Both the position numbers and the translations under genes were made by a program. A stretch of 64,000 bases of DNA, from NCBI GenBank assembly GCA_032372955.1, contig GCA_032372955.1_4725.1; one strand, 5' to 3'. Positions 1,705-28,014 of the stretch are shown here, in pieces; the first letter of the stretch is position 1, and each line of letters begins with the position of its first letter. The stretch comes from Escherichia coli (GTDB lineage: Bacteria > Pseudomonadota > Gammaproteobacteria > Enterobacterales > Enterobacteriaceae). The notes beneath the pieces were generated by a model. It saw only the letters and a list, made by a program, of their open reading frames with translations. It did no database searches and was not told the DNA's origin.

Positions 1705-3231
1705 ATGGCAGGAAATACTGAGCTCGGTGCCGTTTTCTACTGCGATGGAGGATCCCGTCCAACATCGAGTGGGTATGGTGGCTACGGCGTGCACGGCTAC
1801 ACCTACGATATGGTGAAAGAGATAAAAGGCACCTTGGAACCTTCAAAAAGCGGGAAGCCCAAACCAACGCAATACGGTTATGTTGACCCTAAACTCGACT
1901 TTCCTAAAGACGCTGTGCTGGTCGAACCCAAGGAATACGTGGATGAGTTAGAGGCTTTGGGTTTCAACGTAACGAACAATCAGGCTGAGTTGGATGCCGC
2001 AATACGTGCGATTGAACTTGGAAAAGCAAAGGGGGCAAAACGGATCCAGCTGTTGTCGGACAGCCAATATGTTGTTGTAGGTGCCACCAACCATCTTGCT
2101 AACTGGCGAGAGAACAACTGGGTTAAATCCGACAATAAACCGTTAATGAATGCGGAACGGTGGCGGAAACTCGATAGCGCGATAAGGGATGCGAAGCGCG
2201 ACGCTATCGATATTTCGCTGCGCTACGTTCCTGGACATGAGGGCAATGTTGGTAACGAACGTGCGGATATGCTGGCAACGCGTGGAACATATCTGTCACA
2301 AAACCAGGACTGGGCTGTAAGAACCCAAATACGCCGCGAACTTCCGGCTAAGGGGTATTGGAGCCCTGAACCGGAAATAAGCCCGTTCTTTACGTTCTCA
2401 CGCTGCTACTTTACCACCAACCAGCAGCAAGAGCGTGCGAAAGATGGCCGCTACATCTATTTCGGTGGTAACACCGATAAAGACAACAAGGGACGTCTTG
2501 AGTTAGGGAAAAGGATTAGCGATAGTGCGTACAGTGTTATCTATTTAAGCAAGCCGGATGATGCTGTTGAGATTATGCGTACGCATGCATCTCGGGTATT
2601 AGAGCACGGGACAACGGAGTCAGTGTATATCGCATACACGGATAACCTTCATCATCGTCAATATCATCGCGATATTCTTGAGGGTGAGTGCGATCTTACG
2701 ATGCGTCCGACAGGCCTCGGTAAGAGCGTGCATCTTCCGCTAGGTGGATCGAACACAGCCATTTTAATGGAAGCATGTAATCCGCCTAACCTTGCTTGGC
2801 GTGCGATTGATTCCTTGAACTTCTTAAAGACGTTACTGGATGAATGGCTTGACGCTAACCGCGAATCCACACCGCGTCTGGTCGTAACCGAAATTACCGA
2901 CGTTCTTTTCGAAACAGAAAAGGATAAGAAAGGCAAAACGGTTACCAAAGTGCATAGTGCGATTACGCAGGTTACGAAAAGCTTGAAGGTGGACGTGAAT
3001 TACAGACTGACCCCCGATAAGCAGGGCGTTACGTCTTGTACCATGTCCTTGGGGTTAGACCTGCCTCAACGCCTGAACTTGAGCTATTTAGCATCACCGG
3101 AAACGAAAGCGTACGCGGTAACATATCGCGAGTCTGATGTTGCGTTTCGTTTCGCTGTGATTATTGAGTCGGGGGACGACGTTGGTATATGGGCTAACAT
3201 ATACAGTAACCCACGTTATGTGTTGGAGTAA
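1705..3231 (+). CDS. RNase H (RNase HI-like) domain protein with about 300-aa C-terminal extension
   Basis: N-terminal domain matches the RNase HI catalytic pattern (CDGGS ... NNQAELDA ... LSDSQYVV ... VPGHEGNVGNERADMLA); ATG 1705 has GAGG SD; the ORF-track start 1693 is an alternative. Confidence 0.75.
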   Translation: MAGNTELGAVFYCDGGSRPTSSGYGGYGVHGYTYDMVKEIKGTLEPSKSGKPKPTQYGYVDPKLDFPKDAVLVEPKEYVDELEALGFNVTNNQAELDAAIRAIELGKAKGAKRIQLLSDSQYVVVGATNHLANWRENNWVKSDNKPLMNAERWRKLDSAIRDAKRDAIDISLRYVPGHEGNVGNERADMLATRGTYLSQNQDWAVRTQIRRELPAKGYWSPEPEISPFFTFSRCYFTTNQQQERAKDGRYIYFGGNTDKDNKGRLELGKRISDSAYSVIYLSKPDDAVEIMRTHASRVLEHGTTESVYIAYTDNLHHRQYHRDILEGECDLTMRPTGLGKSVHLPLGGSNTAILMEACNPPNLAWRAIDSLNFLKTLLDEWLDANRESTPRLVVTEITDVLFETEKDKKGKTVTKVHSAITQVTKSLKVDVNYRLTPDKQGVTSCTMSLGLDLPQRLNLSYLASPETKAYAVTYRESDVAFRFAVIIESGDDVGIWANIYSNPRYVLE

Positions 3232-20808: not shown

Positions 20809-21053
20809 GTATACCTCCAGTTCGATACGTTCCCATGTTACGTTGGAACGTGATGCACGAAGTTTACCTTCGGCATTGATAATGTTGAAGCGTAACTTCA
20901 CACATCGCCCGCTTGATTTTATCAAGCAGGTACGTAACCTAATAACTTCCTCGCCTCAAGCAAGGAAGCGATGGGTGACGCCATCACCCATTACGTCTCT
21001 CGTGTGTTCAGATGATACCGCCGCAGCCGGTGGTGGTAAAGAGGAGTGTCTCC

Positions 21054-22520
21054 ATGGCTAAAGTCAGAGAGCCGTTTAATATTAGCATTTTGCGCCTCGA
21101 TAAACAGCAGTTACGTTTTCTCCCCAAGATCACGAGCATGAGCATCCGTGACCCAAGCACCGGTAATTTCCACGATGATGGTTTCTATTCTTACACCATC
21201 TTTGGTAGTGCGGGTAGTGAAGATCGAGACCGTCGATTTGCGGTGATCGAATGCAAGGTTGAAATCCTACACCCCGTCATTTACGACCGCCTCATTCGAC
21301 TAAAACACCTCTATGGCGATATCATGTCGGGGAAGGCGTACGCTCGGTGGGATCCTGAACAACGCGACTTCGTTGCGTCTGATGCGTTAACAGGACAAAC
21401 AGGATACGGGTTCTTTGCACAACACGTCGCGGATATCAAGTTCGTTTCAACGGGTTCAGCTCAACGAGAGCTACGAATTAAAGTTGTCGAAGAGAACATG
21501 TTCAAAGCGATGACCCGTCACTTACTGGTATTGCCTGCGGGCTTACGCGAAATAGAAGTAAAAGAAGGCGGGTATGAAAGCGAGCAAGAAATCACGGAGT
21601 TGTATCGTCGTTTCCTTGCAATTTCTAACACCGTCCCTGATGGATTAAAAGATTATTCTGATCCCGTTTACGACGGTCAACGTTGGAGCTTACAGAGAAC
21701 ATTTAACGATATCTACGCTTTGTTGTTGGATATGTTCCAAGGTAAGAAAGGGATCTTCCAAGGTAAGTTCGGTTCACGTCGCGTTTGGAACTCAACCCGT
21801 AACGTTATTTCGGCAATTAACCCCACAACAGAGGTACTAGGGTCGCCCAACCAGCCTTCCTGTACCGCAGTTCAGTTAGGGTTATACCAGATGAGCAAAG
21901 CCGCCCTACCCGTGACGCAACATGCGTTACGTACGGGGATTTTGCAGGAAATATTTGTCCGTGATGTTACAGAAGTTGAACTTATCGATACCGAAACGAT
22001 GGAACGTGAACGTGTCACGCTTGATCCAGACACCATCGATGACTTTACAACATGGGACGGAATAGAACGTTTATTGAACACCTTAAGCGATCCTGGTGTA
22101 CGTAACGAACCCATCATGGTTAATGGGCGTTATCTTTGTCTCGTCTATGTGAACAATGATTCGTTTCGGTTATTCCGTGGTATGAGTGAATTACCCCCGG
22201 AGATGCTGAATAAGCCTGGTGCGGATGTTCACCCCATCACGTACACCGAGCTTATCTATATTGCCGGATATAAGTACTGGAATAACCTGGCTGCGATGGT
22301 AACACGTTATCCGGTATCGGGTATGCAATCCGTTATCCCGTTAACCTGTTACGCGCGTACAACCGTTGCAGCAAAACCGAAAACCGAACTGGATAGTAAC
22401 TGGGAACCAATAACGGATGAACGATTTATCGCATGGGAATACCCCGACTGGTTACCTAATGCCTCGTTCGTAGAAACTACTATTGTTCCTGCGCCATACC
22501 TCGCCGGTTTAGGCGGTGAT
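21054..22520 (+). CDS. multisubunit RNA polymerase beta-prime N-terminal fragment, exon 1
   Basis: ELYRRFLAISN and GKKGIFQGKFGSRRVWNSTRNVISAINP match conserved beta-prime regions; ATG 21054 with GAGGAG SD; proposed 5' splice site after T22520; ORF continues 31 codons into the intron to a stop at 22616. Confidence 0.7.
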
Positions 22521-23002
22521 AAGTCCTTGAAAAATAAAGACTTTTTTCAATGGAAGTTGTCCGGTATTCCCGAAAGGGAGTGCTTGAAAAACCTACGAAT
22601 TGCTGGGAACCCCTAAAGCTCAACGACCCATGAGGTGCCGAAAGGCAGAAACAACAGTTGAGATGCACTACCTCCCACGGAGGCTTAGGCTGAAAGAAAA
22701 GCCGCGTAAGCGGTGCTAAGGTGCGCGATAATGGGCAATCAGCAGCCTGGTTGTTGCGTAGTAATACGGCATTCTTGAAAACAAGAATGTGAAACAACGC
22801 AGGTTCAACGACTAAGGGATTTACCACCCTGTAGAGGACAAGCGTCTTCGAAGTGTAGGTTACCGTAACAGGTGTTGCTGAAGTATTCTTCAGCGAAGCT
22901 GACGGTTTGATATAGTCTCCTCTTGCATGAAAGTGCAAGCAGCCTGTGATGTACGTATCCATGCAGGCGGTCTCAGCGTAGCGACCTGAGGCGAAGACAA
23001 GG
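22521..23002 (+). ncRNA. group I intron 1 (in beta-prime gene), 482 nt, no internal ORF
   Basis: P AATTGCTGGGAA 22598-22609; Q CAATCAGCAGCC 22736-22747; R GTTCAACGACTAAGGG 22803-22818; S GATATAGTC 22909-22917 (GACTA/TAGTC forms P7); GNRA hairpins; exon ends in U, intron ends in G; boundaries inferred, about +/-10 nt. Confidence 0.7.
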
Positions 23003-23182
23003 TTCGACGGTGATACGGTCTCGGTTAACGTTCTTTATTCCATGGAAGCCATTGACGAAATTACCAACTCGCACAAGAAGCGAGCTTTCTGGGTAAGTGG
23101 TAAAAATAAATTCAACATCGATATTGGTTACGATACGGTTGCGTTTCTATTACGCAACTTAACGGGACCTCGTGGAGCCTAA
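23003..23182 (+). CDS. RNA polymerase beta-prime fragment, exon 2 (carries FDGD of catalytic motif)
   Basis: Open frame FDGDTVSVNVLYSMEAIDEI... ending TAA 23180-23182; joined to exon 1 gives ...LGGD|FDGDTVSV, i.e. a DFDGD motif. Confidence 0.55.
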   Translation, partial: FDGDTVSVNVLYSMEAIDEITNSHKKRAFWVSGKNKFNIDIGYDTVAFLLRNLTGPRGA

Positions 23183-23185
23183 CCC

Positions 23186-26100
23186 ATGGCAAAACTTAAA
23201 TACCTTGATTACTACCGACAGTTTGGTGTCAGACGCTACCAAGAGCTACTATCACCAAGATTACGTTTAGTGCAGCTACTGCAGCTGCCGCGTTATGCTG
23301 TCTATCATTACACCGCAACGGATCCTTCATTGATAGGTCCTCCAGAAAACGAATACATGCTGAGCAAAGAAAGTGCTCAACTATGGATTTCGTTTGCTGA
23401 TGATCTCGCAACCAAACAGGGTGCACCCCGACGTGATCAACGATTCCAACTCCCACGAGCGAAATTGGATTATCGTGCATCACATCGTCGTTTTCGTTTG
23501 GTTACCGATCTAAGCGCGGTGGAGAAAAACATCAACGCTCAGATCGTTGCTAACTACGCGCATCTTAACCACATGTACATTTATCGTCCAACGCTCACCC
23601 GTTGGTATGATGAATGGTTCAACGTACGTAAAACAATTTGGTCGAAAGCCAACGAAATCGCACAGCAAAGCGATCGTCAACACTTTTTGTTGTTCCGTAT
23701 ACCGTCAAAATTGCCGAAGATTTCGTTGATGCGTACCACGCAACAGGCACCGACCCGTAACAACCTCATGAATTTCGCCACGCCGGAGGAGCTGTCGTTC
23801 TTTGACTTCTTCCGCTGGTTGGGCGTCGATCGTGAGAACAGCACGATGGCTTCGTTAGACAGGGCCATGCTGGATAAGCTTAACGTCGTATTTACAGACG
23901 GTGTGTACTTCTTTACGCTGAATCTCGGCCTGCTGGAGGAATGGCGTACCGGACTTGTGAAGGAAGGGGAAGAACTCGATAAAACGACGCTTGAAACCTT
24001 CCAACGACGTTGGATGATGGCGGTAACACGTCTGTGGTCGCAGAGTGCGAATGAAGAAGAACAGAAACAAGAAGAGGAACAGGTTCTTCGTCAAGAGCGA
24101 GATATTCTTGCAGCCAGCCCGGATGCGGAGTACGATGATCGTGACGTCGTGCTTCCTAACGGTGAGGATCTGGCTACCGTTCTCGATCCCGATGAGTTAG
24201 AAGCGGAGTTGGTCGGTGGGTCGGATGAAGACGATGATGCTGATGCATGGAACGCCATCGTAGAACGCTCGTTCGAAGATGTCCGTGAAGTACCTGGGGT
24301 AGAAGTACAACCGGATTTCCAACCTGATGAAGATCAGGACATTACCGACGATCTCTTCGAAGTCGTTACCGACGATACCGAAGAAGAAAAGGTTGATGTC
24401 TTTGACGCGGCAACGTTACCAAAAACGCATGGCGAATATATTCAGTCGCTATCGGATGCGGTGTTGGTACGCGCGAGTGATCTGGCGGATGCGGGTCAGT
24501 TAAGCGGTGTCCAGTATAAAGCAGCGATGCGTAACGCCGACGCCATTCACGAAATCGAAGCACCCGACGGTTCTGGATTAACACTTGCTGAGTATGTCGA
24601 AGTTAAACCAAAAGCCGCAAAATTAGCTCCCGCAAAGGTTATGCCGGAAGCGGATGTTATCGTCGACAAGAGCTTATGTAAATCGACGCTCGCGGTGTGG
24701 GATAAACATTACGTCGAACACGTAATGCAAAAGGACATCGCAGCTGCCGTTGTTGCGGTACAGCAGGCGGGTTACCCTGTTACGGGATATAAAGTTGAAG
24801 ATGTTGTTGACGTGATGGGGGACTATCAAGTCATCACGATTAAACTGGCCCCTGTAGGCGGTGTCCCGACCACGTTCCCGGTGATGTTGCCGAAGGTTCG
24901 TAAGGACGGCATTTATGTCGTTAACGGTATCAAGTACCGGATGCGTAAACAACGCGTCGATAAACCTATTAGAAAGGTATCGTCATCTGAAGTCGCATTG
25001 AGTACCGCCTACGGTAAGGTGTTTGTTAAACGTTCAGAGCGCGTCGTTAATAACGCCGGTCGTTGGTTAACACGCCAACTTACGGCGATGTATTACGATA
25101 AGTCCTCGCCCTTAACAACGTTAAAACGCGGTAACGTCTTTGATCCGGCTGTCAAAGTTCCGTATTACTTCGCTGTGCTTGCACGCAACTATACCCAAAT
25201 CCAATTTGCTGATTGGGATATACGTCTCGATATAAAAACATTGCCGGAGTTCATCGGGGAAGATCGGTTCAACGAACAGTTAGCCGAAGGACTCCTGACG
25301 TTCGCGCGTAACACGTTGGGTGAATTCTTAGCAATCGATAAACGCAATCAGCTCTATATCTGTCAGTCGGGACAAACACCAACACCTGTAGGGACGTTCC
25401 CTGATTTCTTCGGCATTAATGCGGCTAAGATGCCGATCGAAGCCGCCGATCTTGAATTCATGGGTGTACGTATTCCGGTCGGTGTTGTTCTAAGTTATCT
25501 GGGTGGGCTTACCCCGTTATTAGAACATCTTAAAGCGAACTATCGTACGGTACCTCGCGGCTCTCGTATGGGGTTAGCACCCGATGAATTCGCAGTGAGC
25601 TTTGACGACGAAAGTCTGATCTTCAGTAAAGACGATCGCATGACGACGTTGTTGCTGGGTGGGTTTAACGAATACCGTAACTACATTGGTTACGCTCGCG
25701 GTGCTTTCGACAATCGAGATATCTATTTTAACGTTGTTGATGGTGCTGGACTTAAGGTTCGCCATTTGCGCGAACTTGAACTCATGGAGCGTCTTTTCAT
25801 CGATCCGGTAAGCCGTACGTTGTTGCAGAACATGGGAGAACCTACCGATTTCGCCATGTTGTTACTGCGTGCTGTTGAACTGCTTCTGGATGATTGGGCA
25901 CCTAACACGAACGATGTGAACTACCAACGTTTTAAAACGTACGATAAGTTCGCTGAATTGGTGTATAAGGACCTGGTTGGCGCTATTCGTCAGAATGAGA
26001 ACAGCAGTCAAGGGAACCGCCAGAAAATCTCAATCAGTCCGGTAAGCGTCTGGAACCAAATTCTCGACGATAGCGCTTCCATCGTGATCGATGAAACCAA

Positions 26101-26392
26101 CCCGATGCTGGATATCAAGCAGGGTGAAGAAGCAACGATGACCGGTATCGGGGGTCGTTCAAAGACATCGCTTCGACGCGCACGTGATCGCGAATACGAC
26201 AAGTCGGACATTGGTGTTGTATCCGAAGGTACGAAGGATAGTGGGGACGTAGGTATTTCTGCTTACCTCGCACCTAACGCAAACATTGTGTCTGTATACG
26301 GTGAAACGAAACCTTACGACGAGAAAACGGATGGTAGCTCGTCAATAATGAGTACATCAGCACTTGCAGTACCTGCTGCTGATAGAGATGAT
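23186..26392 (+). CDS. multisubunit RNA polymerase beta fragment, exon 1
   Basis: ATG with GGAG SD; C-terminal part has beta-like TGIGGRSKTSLRRARDREYD ... VVSEGTKDSGDVGISAYLAPNANI; about 500 aa N-terminal extension; in-frame TAA at 26393 is proposed to be intronic. Confidence 0.75.
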
Positions 26393-26874
26393 TAACGCTT
26401 TTAATAGCAGGGTCCGTCTATGTGGCGACATGTAGATGAGATTCACTGAATTGCGAAGACATCCGTCGCTGTTATCGACCAAAACGGATTCTGAAAAGAA
26501 AGACGGTACGGTATAAAAACAGATAATAGCTTAAGGACAATCCGCAGCCAAGTACCTAAGGATCGCTGTGAAGCGTTCTAAGGTAAAGGTTCAACGACTA
26601 AGGGATTCATCCCCCTGTACCCCTCGAGTGAGGCATTCTCCTTGGATAAGAGAATGGTGCTGGATGCGCTGGGAAGAAGTGAACTCTCGTTGAGGTGCTG
26701 AAGAAGCACCGTTTGAAACGAGATGTGATATAGTCTGCTCTTGCGTGAGAGCGCAAGCGGGAGGTGGTGCGCCTATCATCGCCTCCGGGATAAGACTAAC
26801 GACCTTATCTGAACAATCTAATCTCAGTCTTATTTCGGTAACGGTATGTTAATACTGAATAAGAACTAAATTCG
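26393..26874 (+). ncRNA. group I intron 2 (in beta gene), 482 nt, no internal ORF
   Basis: P GAATTGCGAAGA 26448-26459; Q CAATCCGCAGCC 26538-26549; R GTTCAACGACTAAGGG 26589-26604; S GATATAGTC 26727-26735; 3' hairpin TAAGACTAACGACCTTATCTGAAC; 5' splice site uncertain within 26365-26393. Confidence 0.65.
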
Positions 26875-28014
26875 CCCAAGAGATTGGTATTTATAGGTAT
26901 CCAACACAACCGCATGATTGCTGCTGAAGGTTACGATGTACAGCCGTGGCGTACGGGTGGTGAGACTGTTATCGCGCATCGTGTTGGTAAGCTCTTCGCA
27001 GCAGCTGCCCAAGGCGATGGTGTTGTGAAGAAGGTCACTAAAACTGCGCTGACGATACAGTACGACGACCCAGAGTTAGGGGAAGAGGTTTTCCAGCTCG
27101 GTACGATAATCGGGAAAGGACCAGGTAAGTATTATCCTCACGATCTCATTACCGATTATAAAGTCGGGGATCGCGTTAAGGATCAGGATGTGGTGGTTTT
27201 CCACCGCCTTTATTTTAAACGCGATTGGTGGAACCCAGGTCAGGTTGTTTGGCGCGCAGGTGTTCTGTCTCTTGTCGGTATTCTGGATATTCCAGAGACC
27301 CACGAGGACAGCTCGTATATCTTCGACAATCTTGCTGATCGTCTCGTAACACCATCGATTAAGAGTCGTACGCTTATCGTTGACGCTCATCTCAACATTC
27401 GTGGTCTCGTGAAAATCGGTGATCATGTTGAACCGCGAACGATTCTTGCAACACTGGAAGAACCGATTGCAACCGATCTGAGTGATGAGAGTCAGGAAGC
27501 CGTTGAAGCATTACGTCGTATGAGTCAGTATAACCCACGTGCTGATGTTCATGGTGAAGTTGTACAGATCGATGTACTGTACCGCGCTCAGATTGAAGAC
27601 ATGAGTGAAACCATGGCAGCGCTCGTCGGTGAGGCAGATAAAGCACGAGCTAAACGCGTCAAGGAACTGAAACTCAACGAAGCAACAACGGGGCGTATCA
27701 ATAACAGTAACGTGAGAATAGACGGTAATCCGTTAGGCGAGAACCAGATCGCCATCCGTATTTTCATGCGTTACGACCTTGGTGCGGGGATGGGTGATAA
27801 AGGTACCTTCGCAGCTCAAGCGAAATCCGTTGTCTCTTCCGTGGGTCATGGTGTGAACAAAACCGAAGACGGGCACACCCTTGATGCTATCTTCAGTGGC
27901 ACCAGTATCGCTAACCGTATCATCGGTTCACCGGAAGTGGTTGGGACTGTGAATCTTGGTCTCCTCTACGCAACGGAACGAGCTGTTGATATTTACTTTA
28001 ACGACGCTAAATAA
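26875..28014 (+). CDS. RNA polymerase beta fragment, exon 2
   Basis: Begins PKRLVFIGIQHNRM (fork-loop-like) and contains GDKGTFAAQAKSVV ... EDGHTLDAIFSGTSIANRIIGSPE (beta GDK...GNKG / SRMN-like region); only a TTG with no usable SD in this frame, so independent translation is unlikely. Confidence 0.7.
   Translation, partial: PKRLVFIGIQHNRMIAAEGYDVQPWRTGGETVIAHRVGKLFAAAAQGDGVVKKVTKTALTIQYDDPELGEEVFQLGTIIGKGPGKYYPHDLITDYKVGDRVKDQDVVVFHRLYFKRDWWNPGQVVWRAGVLSLVGILDIPETHEDSSYIFDNLADRLVTPSIKSRTLIVDAHLNIRGLVKIGDHVEPRTILATLEEPIATDLSDESQEAVEALRRMSQYNPRADVHGEVVQIDVLYRAQIEDMSETMAALVGEADKARAKRVKELKLNEATTGRINNSNVRIDGNPLGENQIAIRIFMRYDLGAGMGDKGTFAAQAKSVVSSVGHGVNKTEDGHTLDAIFSGTSIANRIIGSPEVVGTVNLGLLYATERAVDIYFNDAK

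Follow-up and report, generated by a model that had tools for sequence, protein, structure and literature searches.

The stretch of DNA analysed here (hereafter the window) comprises 64,000 nucleotides (nt) of contig GCA_032372955.1_4725.1, from an assembly deposited as Escherichia coli (GCA_032372955.1), and the region concerned shares 95.7% identity with the chimallivirus vB_EcoM_Goslar, an Escherichia phage (Goslarvirus). Two adjacent genes on its plus strand appear to encode subunits of a virion-packaged RNA polymerase (vRNAP), and the first of them, for a subunit resembling the N-terminal part of beta-prime, is interrupted at the DFDGD motif by an insert of 482 nt (22521..23002, plus strand) that matches group I introns and carries no endonuclease open reading frame (ORF). 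On the evidence presented below, we interpret this insert, with high confidence, as a group I intron of subgroup IA that lacks an ORF and would be spliced in frame from the vRNAP beta-prime-N transcript of a Goslar-like chimallivirus.

Read directly, the interrupted gene falls into two frames. ORF 21012..22616 runs to ...YLAGLGGD and then through 31 insert-encoded codons (KSLKNKDFFQWKLSGIPERECLKNLRIAGNP) to a stop, which leaves a gap of 569 nt before the next ORF (23186); within it, the frame 23003..23182 reads FDGDTVSVNVLYSME...GA* (also given as FDGDTVSVNVLYSMEAIDE...GA*) and has no in-frame start codon before FDGD, the earliest being ATG 23042. An exact-protein lookup of the 534-residue read-through ORF returned no record. 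Excision of 22521..23002, in contrast, joins the first Asp of DFDGD to its Phe and recreates the motif in frame, and no other in-frame junction does so. The spliced model, join(21054..22520,23003..23182), consists of exon 1 (21054..22520, ending ...YLAGLGGD with last codon GAT) and exon 2 (23003..23182, FDGDTVSVNVLYSMEAIDEITNSHKKRAFWVSGKNKFNIDIGYDTVAFLLRNLTGPRGA plus stop), and yields 548 amino acids (aa) from ATG 21054 (MAKVRE...), the start of Goslar gp205 and of all database proteins without the intron. A second possible start, the in-frame ATG 21012, lies 14 codons further upstream and is also open.

When the product of conceptual splicing was used as a protein query, it retrieved 548-aa proteins (P0001, P0003) at a stated identity of 99-100%, and these run through the junction unbroken (...PAPYLAGLGGDFDGDTVSVNVL...); P0001 was scored as 100% identical, yet its sequence differs by two substitutions, both away from the junction. 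Homologues at 35-70% identity all carry [GA]DFDGDT at the junction position. The five contigs encoding P0001 (L002-L006) are alleles without the intron, and since they lack precisely 22521..23002, they fix its boundaries to the base. Indeed, their alignment to the window extends to 22507 and resumes at 23003, the interval between these two ends holds exactly 13 exon bases in the window and in the contigs alike, and the same 30 residues are encoded across the junction, which in the contigs is continuous (...GLGGDFDGDTVSV...). The last base of exon 1 is accordingly U22520, and that of the insert is G23002, the omega-G; a G also ends the introns of four related loci described below (L010, L012, L013 and L015) and the second intron of the window. 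The initial annotation, made from the sequence alone, had placed the splice sites at these two nucleotides and proposed that the frame 23003..23182 is restored by splicing, and the product matches P0001 and P0003 across the junction as predicted; the intron-less alleles form one continuous gene, not two independent ORFs. The gene copy encoding P0003, likewise without the intron, comes from a contig of 238 kb whose label is Salmonella enterica serovar Enteritidis (BZQ24_08735), apparently a Goslar-like phage genome inside a bacterial assembly.

As Pfam returned no family at E 0.01 for the spliced protein or for the exons of the neighbouring beta gene, the interrupted gene was identified from its homologues and from the annotations of their records. 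A tblastn search with the spliced protein matched 296 phage records, among which the orthologue of Erwinia phage RAY is annotated as "putative vRNAP beta' subunit 1". PhiPA3 gp212, described in its record as "similar to ... gp180 Pseudomonas phage phiKZ", is also an orthologue, and the gene order of PhiPA3 is that of the window, a tail-fibre gene encoded on the opposite strand being followed by beta-prime-N (gp212) and beta (gp211/209). Judged from these annotations and this gene order, the host gene encodes the N-terminal beta-prime-like subunit of the split vRNAP of a chimallivirus, that is, of a nucleus-forming jumbo phage of E. coli. The initial annotation had named it the RNA polymerase beta-prime gene, which holds for the beta-prime likeness but not for the extent, the product being one subunit of a split enzyme. 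Goslar gp205 and gp207 were found in virions as vRNAP subunits (bioRxiv 10.64898/2026.04.21.720040), and hence the interrupted gene is expressed in viable phage. Only splicing could yield exon-2 tryptic peptides such as FNIDIGYDTVAFLLR or AFWVSGK.

The identity of the insert was established by an Rfam scan of the whole window, in which the group I intron model RF00028 matched 22535-22939 with 64.1 bits (E 6e-14; gathering score 50) over its full length (model positions 1-253). The initial claim of a group I intron that separates the first Asp of DFDGD from its Phe is confirmed, and the four core elements that had been read from the sequence, together with GNRA-capped hairpins, were all located in canonical order: P AATTGCTGGGAA (22598-22609), Q AATCAGCAGCC (22737-22747), R GTTCAACGACTAAGGG (22803-22818) and S GATATAGTC (22909-22917). 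The minimum free energy (MFE) of 22509-23008 is -174 kcal/mol, versus -143.8 +/- 6.4 kcal/mol for 100 shuffled sequences (z = -4.75), so that chance accounts for neither the Rfam match nor the fold, and the unconstrained MFE structure recovers P1, P2, P3, P4, P5, P6, P7.1, P7.2, P8, P9, P9.1 and P9.2.

Following the intron from its 5' end, P2 (22563..22584, from the MFE structure) is a 9-bp stem (22563-71 with 22576-84) closed by a GAAA tetraloop, in which the change C22571U found in Goslar and in L008, a 183-kb IMG/VR contig, keeps the pair. P3, supported by both MFE and covariation, pairs 22590..22597 with 22854..22861. The P element AAUUGCUGGGAA (22598..22609) includes J3/4 and the 5' strand of P4 (22601-22606 with 22739-22744), whereas the Q element AAUCAGCAGCC (22737..22747, assigned from sequence and Rfam) supplies the 3' strand of P4 and the start of P6. 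Between them, P5 (22610-12 with 22733-35) bears a large extension of several hairpins (22610..22735), some of them GNRA-capped, e.g. UGCC-GAAA-GGCA at 22636-22647; this extension occurs in the Goslar-type intron only. The P6 domain (22745..22804) is composed of P6 (22745-49 with 22800-04), P6a (22750-55 with 22793-98) and two hairpins, at 22757-68, with a GUAA loop that is GCAA in Goslar and remains GNRA, and at 22769-90. The R element (22803..22818) provides the 5' strand (G22810-A22814) and the S element GAUAUAGUC (22909..22917) the 3' strand (U22913-C22917) of P7, which is thus a pseudoknotted helix (22810-14 with 22913-17). P7.1 and P7.2 (22815..22849; 22815-18 with 22827-30 and 22834-39 with 22844-49) follow directly, then P8 (22862..22906, from the MFE structure) and finally P9, P9.1 and P9.2 (22922..22992), made up of P9 with a GAAA loop (22922-28 with 22933-39) and of the segments 22942-68 and 22970-92. 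P8 is 28 nt shorter than its counterpart in Goslar and L008, which hold a hairpin, CCGCAUUCUCGAUAUGAUCGAGAAAGUG (L001 9419-9446 in Goslar), that is missing from the window at 22893/22894.

This structure covaries. Across an alignment of eight introns (both introns of the window and those of L008, Goslar, L010, L012, L013 and L015), standard pairs fill 85% of the cells, versus 32-45% when the partners are slid by 1-3 columns, and 29 of the 61 pairs show changes on both sides. No shuffle out of 500 reached the observed values on four of five measures, and 3/500 did so on the fifth, the count of further pair types. Seven of the eight P3 pairs are changed on both sides, as is nearly every column of P7.2, and P9 also covaries strongly; P7 pairs are kept at 100% and are invariant but for one double change from U-A to C-G (L010, L013). 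The pair G22810-C22917, with the unpaired C22809, is invariant in all eight introns and would be the guanosine-binding pair, which we take to be equivalent to G264-C311 of the Tetrahymena intron. Extra helices between P7 and P3' of the P7.1/P7.2 type mark subgroup IA, and their covarying presence in the structural model places this intron as IA or IA-like, similar to the classical phage introns.

No ORF of relevant size was found on the sense strand of the 482 nt, in line with the earlier statement that a homing endonuclease is absent, and no homologue of the Goslar endonuclease gp206 was detected in the 64-kb window (best tblastn E 0.63). An antisense ORF (22480..22962, minus strand, 160 aa, ATG start) was considered as a gene and rejected as probably spurious, since it lies over its whole length on the complement of the ribozyme and the 28-nt indel that separates it from Goslar and L008 would shift its frame.

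The P1 helix required more attention. In the register that we assign, the exon bases G-A-U (22518-22520) and the first intron bases A-A form the 5' strand (22518..22522) and pair, in the unconstrained MFE structure, with the internal guide UUGUC (22557..22561): G22559.U22520, U22560-A22519 and C22561-G22518, extended within the intron by U22558-A22521 and U22557-A22522. The loop (L1) folds into an extension hairpin (22524..22554; 22524-22534 with 22543-22554, MFE). U22520.G22559 was retained as the splice-site wobble because this GUC:GAU register is conserved in the relatives and has the better folding energy. Indeed, GUCC stands directly 5' of the hairpin at the P2 position, GNRA-looped in most cases, in seven of seven introns and in the PhiPA3 gp210 intron as well: at 22559-22562 and 26412-26415 in the window, L001 9082-9085 in Goslar, L010 5493-5496, L012 6516-6519, L013 6624-6627, L015 5517-5520 and, on the minus strand, L016 ~2486-2483 in PhiPA3, each time abutting P2. 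The 5' exon ends in GAU, pairing with GUC, in 7/8 of these introns; in L015, which differs, the exon GACUU| pairs with a longer guide, GAGUC, and the splice site lies 2 nt downstream, as coding requires. In addition, the base on the 5' side of the guide G changes in concert with intron position +1, the pair being A-U in the window intron, C-G in Goslar, U-A in L010, L012, L013, L015 and PhiPA3, and U.G in the second intron of the window.

The initial annotation had proposed a different P1, GGUGAU with GUUGUC (G22556.U22520 ... C22561-G22515), and a P10 between GAA (22553..22555) and the exon-2 UUC (23003-23005). The complementarity on which this rested does exist: GAA 22553-55 together with 22556-61 gives 9 nt complementary to the ligated exons in the window and L008, and the chance that the six extra bases fit is estimated at about 1 in 500. 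However, it is absent from Goslar, where UAUAAG-GUC replaces the GGAAGUU-GUC of the window, and from L010, so that the proposed register is impossible in both, and enforcing it on the 5' region costs 4.2 kcal/mol (-22.1 kcal/mol versus -26.3 kcal/mol for the unconstrained fold, which has the GUC:GAU register). The P1 first proposed is thus most likely three bases off and is kept as an alternative only, although the extended complementarity of the window and L008 may still act as P10 or as an alternative P1, the status of GAA being uncertain. Both registers pick the same splice site.

The closest comparison is provided by Goslar itself, which has an intron of 2044 nt (L001 7510..9553) at the same insertion site (GGC GGT GAT | ... 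G | TTC GAC), in the same host gene with the same flanking synonymous codons, and with a ribozyme approximately 95% identical from P2 to omega-G. Unlike the window intron, the Goslar copy contains an HNH/NUMOD1 ORF in the P1 loop, besides the additional P8 hairpin, and its 5' splice site lies approximately 1570 nt from the guide as against 38 nt in the window. The encoded protein, gp206 (490 aa), matches HNH_3 (E 3e-8) and, just under the Pfam cut-off of 22.8 bits, NUMOD1 (21.2 bits), which by its domains would be the usual composition of phage intron homing endonucleases. The L1 position is also the site of the HNH endonuclease ORF in L012, L013 and PhiPA3. The GenBank/RefSeq record of Goslar includes an automatic, Rfam-derived non-coding RNA feature, "Intron_gpI" (HOV27_gs002), between gp205 and gp207; the exons are unjoined, gp205 breaks off with the first Asp of DFDGD, and no annotation covers exon 2 with its 59 residues. 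The warning that ORF-based annotation would truncate this gene and add 31 residues was therefore justified, the addition being that of ORF 21012..22616 and the truncation that of gp205. A MAFFT alignment had suggested similarity of the 38-nt L1 segment of the window (22521-22558) to the 3' end of the Goslar endonuclease ORF, but this segment was rejected as a remnant of that ORF, its local score being 17 against a shuffle mean of 17.5.

Among genomes approximately 95-96% identical to one another, both introns are polymorphic. L002 and L004 lack the two of them; L003 lacks intron 1 and has intron 2; Goslar has intron 1, with its endonuclease ORF, and lacks intron 2; the window and L008 have both, neither with an ORF; and in L009, intron 1 was not seen in the locus and intron 2 is present with a gp206-like ORF of approximately 400 aa. 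The flanks of intron 1 read GGC GGT GAT|TTC in intron-plus and GGT GGG GAC|TTT in intron-minus alleles, so that 12 nt contain four synonymous differences, among them the one that makes the U at position -1 of the intron-plus alleles. Such differences are the pattern that would be expected of homing with co-conversion, or of selection for P1 pairing. As the sister copy in Goslar carries an endonuclease and close relatives occur with and without the intron, the window intron seems to represent a mobile lineage caught in an endonuclease-less stage; having no endonuclease, it could not move by itself.

Intron 2 was revealed by a second RF00028 match in the window scan (26391-26757, 52.8 bits), in the adjacent vRNAP beta gene. 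It was placed by comparison with Goslar gp207 and L002 at 26393..26874 (482 nt, no ORF), and the beta gene, 23186..26392 + 26875..28014, then encodes 1448 aa, equal to gp207. Intron 2 follows ...DRDD (GAU GAU|), and the intron of PhiPA3 gp210 follows ...MNDD (GAU GAU|) in the orthologous gene. Because of this common DD| site and the shared architecture of guide and P2, intron 2 is the positional homologue of the PhiPA3 intron, and intron 1 would be its paralogue in the neighbouring gene. Approximately 40 nt of exon on each side of intron 2 are densely diverged from the intron-less alleles, with a change from Gly to Pro at the first exon-2 codon. In its 5' part, the segment 26394-26504 shows weak translated similarity to the C-terminus of the L009 endonuclease ORF (46% over 37 aa, E 1.7e-4) and may be the remnant of a deleted endonuclease gene. 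In the PhiPA3 record, the gp211 coding sequence (CDS) does not stop at the DD site but continues for 15 codons of the intron (L016 3473-3526, minus strand; …MNDD|CYCLLNVCEVYTPML*), and the 3' end of the gp210 ORF overlaps the guide and P2 of its own intron.

The DFDGD segment is interrupted in other phages too. Of the best 120 homologue clusters listed for the spliced protein, 32 cover only approximately 80-89% of the query; 27 of these stop at, or a few read-through residues beyond, ...G[AG]D, three after ...DF and two after ...DFDGD. Four such loci were fetched, and in every one of them RF00028 matches (69-84 bits) right after the shortened ORF. The intron of L010 (5468-5869, no ORF) interrupts D|YDGD, that of L012 (5453-6829, HNH ORF) D|FDGD, and that of L013 (5456-6945, HNH ORF) DFDGD|M, while the intron of L015 (5464-5904, no ORF) is inserted 2 nt further downstream. 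By extension, introns are probable in the other 28 shortened clusters. Interruption is rare in cultured phages, 285 of the 296 records covering >=80% of the protein in one piece. A comparable case is nevertheless found in Vibrio phage vB_pir03, where a beta-prime-like gene is broken as ...GPNAD | FDGDMM... (QNI21051 / QNI21056) with an RF00028 match of 54.7 bits between the two pieces (L017 ~1860-3200); the phage is distant, however, the beta-prime-like gene is a different one, and the insert, approximately 1.3 kb long, has small ORFs. From these sequences, the segment coding for DFDGD appears to be a multi-site intron target, with three sub-sites, in jumbo-phage polymerases. No phage intron linked with DFDGD was found in the literature searched.

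A broader scheme can be tentatively considered, which we regard as possible but rather less probable than its negation: a single IA lineage of jumbo phages, recognizing its exon through the 3 nt GUC that read GAU Asp codons, would have colonized at least four Asp-codon sites in both catalytic vRNAP subunits. The putative sites would be D|FDGD (window, Goslar, L010, L012), DFDGD| (L013), the beta-subunit DD| (intron 2, PhiPA3) and the GACUU| slid by 2 nt (L015). If this were true, it would imply site-hopping by reverse splicing, or retargeting of an HNH endonuclease, within one enzyme, and the three metal-binding Asp codons of DFDGD would be a dedicated intron landing pad.

In the splicing pathway that we propose for intron 1, the intron would fold within the pre-mRNA into the P3-P9 core, and GUC (22559-61) would pair with the Asp codon GAU (22518-20), so that P1 would contain the U22520.G22559 wobble. 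With G22810-C22917 in P7 as its binding site, an exogenous guanosine would then attack after U22520, omega-G23002 would take its place in the site, and the free 3'-OH of U22520 would attack after G23002. GAU would thus be joined to UUC, giving ...GLGG-D|FDGD-TVSV... and a 548-aa protein whose magnesium-binding DFDGD loop is intact.

Several observations weigh against this pathway and, with it, against our interpretation of the insert. The guide pairs with the exon over 3 bp only, plus 2 bp within the intron, and no contiguous P10 is available in the GUC:GAU register. The intron does not start with a stop codon, unlike most of its relatives, and ribosomes could therefore read 31 codons into it. 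The P8 hairpin of Goslar and L008 is missing, which may have an effect, and no mention of an intron in gp205 was found in the literature on Goslar. Finally, ONT-cappable-seq detected no spliced reads for the predicted endonuclease-associated introns of PhiKZ (gp56, gp72, gp179; PMC10914365), which means that prediction does not guarantee intron activity in this phage family.

Three other explanations of the locus were weighed against splicing by the intron alone. According to the first, which we judge unlikely, the fold is truly that of a group I intron but is not autonomous: it would need a phage or host protein, such as a maturase or an RNA chaperone, or would splice inefficiently or conditionally and thereby regulate the output of the subunit. 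The very short exon pairing in P1 would fit with this, and so would the absence from the window of the endonuclease, a protein that serves some introns as maturase. Short P1 helices are, however, also known in active bacterial group I introns, e.g. in that of Azoarcus tRNA-Ile, and nothing is missing from the catalytic core, which is highly structured and covaries; moreover, ORF-less copies persist in several distant relatives (L008, L010, L015), so the endonuclease does not seem to be needed. The same explanation can draw on the PhiKZ introns, which were without spliced reads under the conditions tested, and on those of T4, which splice in a condition-dependent manner (cited in PMC10914365).

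Far less likely still, the insert would be a decayed, non-splicing remnant, the gene being a pseudogene or producing a truncated protein in a defective or assembly-only genome. The 28 nt missing from P8 and the lack of an L1 ORF would indeed be deletions that the intron has suffered, but every core helix and the conserved nucleotides at the junctions are intact, the match exceeds the Rfam gathering threshold, the differences from Goslar sit in loops or keep the pairs, and the same ORF-less form is found in the independent 183-kb viral contig L008. Full coding constraint acts on the two exons, which match the intron-less alleles, and none of the relatives found (296 phage records) has lost this vRNAP subunit.

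That the subunit would naturally consist of two polypeptides split at DFDGD, with an unrelated structured spacer between them and no splicing at all, is scarcely credible. We know of no precedent for a split through the magnesium-chelating loop that leaves the first Asp on another chain. Division of jumbo-phage RNA polymerase subunits into several genes is known (PMC7598289) and GenBank has the two pieces as separate CDSs in Goslar and vB_pir03, but no in-frame start exists between the preceding stop and FDGD, ATG 23042 lying past the motif, near-identical intron-less alleles encode one continuous protein, and the spacer is a full-length match to RF00028.

In-frame splicing of a group I intron therefore remains our interpretation, and its consequences are first of all practical. 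The annotation of a catalytic vRNAP subunit is wrong in this phage as well as in the Goslar reference genome, and the same holds for pir03-like records and for approximately one-quarter of the homologue clusters listed from metagenomes; join(21054..22520,23003..23182), or the corresponding model, should be the basis of structural and proteomic studies of chimallivirus vRNAP. Goslar-like genomes also form a natural series (no intron, endonuclease-bearing, endonuclease-less) at two sites in adjacent polymerase genes, which offers material for the study of the cycle of invasion, degeneration and loss of homing introns and bears on the intron-mediated competition of PhiPA3 and PhiKZ. As transcription takes place inside a proteinaceous nucleus from which ribosomes are excluded, these introns would splice uncoupled from translation, in contrast to the T4 paradigm. 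What this analysis adds is the corrected gene model, the supported structure with its P1 assignment and the DFDGD segment as a multi-site target; the general understanding of group I introns is unaltered by these results. Introns have reportedly been found in genes of phage AR9 as well, in the AR9 genome paper.

It is a classical finding that group I introns, with or without HNH endonucleases, occupy active-site codons in essential phage genes (PMC12908238), and one in a chimallivirus vRNAP gene has already been published, that of PhiPA3 gp210 (PMC11620839). The latter (RF00028, 67.8 bits) is found in the same family of phages and in the same polymerase as the window intron, and likewise has a GUCC guide before a GNRA-capped P2, pairs it with an exon GAU and follows conserved Asp codons. 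However, it lies in the beta subunit after 'DD' (the D675 region of E. coli RpoB) and not at beta-prime DFDGD, and its P1 loop region holds the HNH endonuclease gp210, an active nicking enzyme with a role in phage-phage competition (Birkholz et al. 2024, Science, PMC11620839), for which the window intron has no counterpart. The window intron is a further example of this known kind of phage intron and not a new kind of element. The introns of T4 td, nrdB and sunY (subgroup IA2) and the DNA-polymerase introns of SPO1 and SP82 (with I-HmuI-type HNH enzymes) are inserted in essential phage genes at conserved codons, and the window intron resembles them in its IA architecture with P7.1/P7.2, in the existence of variants with and without ORFs, and in the association with HNH/NUMOD endonucleases that nick the intron-less allele. 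It differs from them in that their host genes belong to nucleotide metabolism or encode DNA polymerase, that the T4 ORFs are located in the P6 or P9 loops rather than in L1, and that the guides are others.

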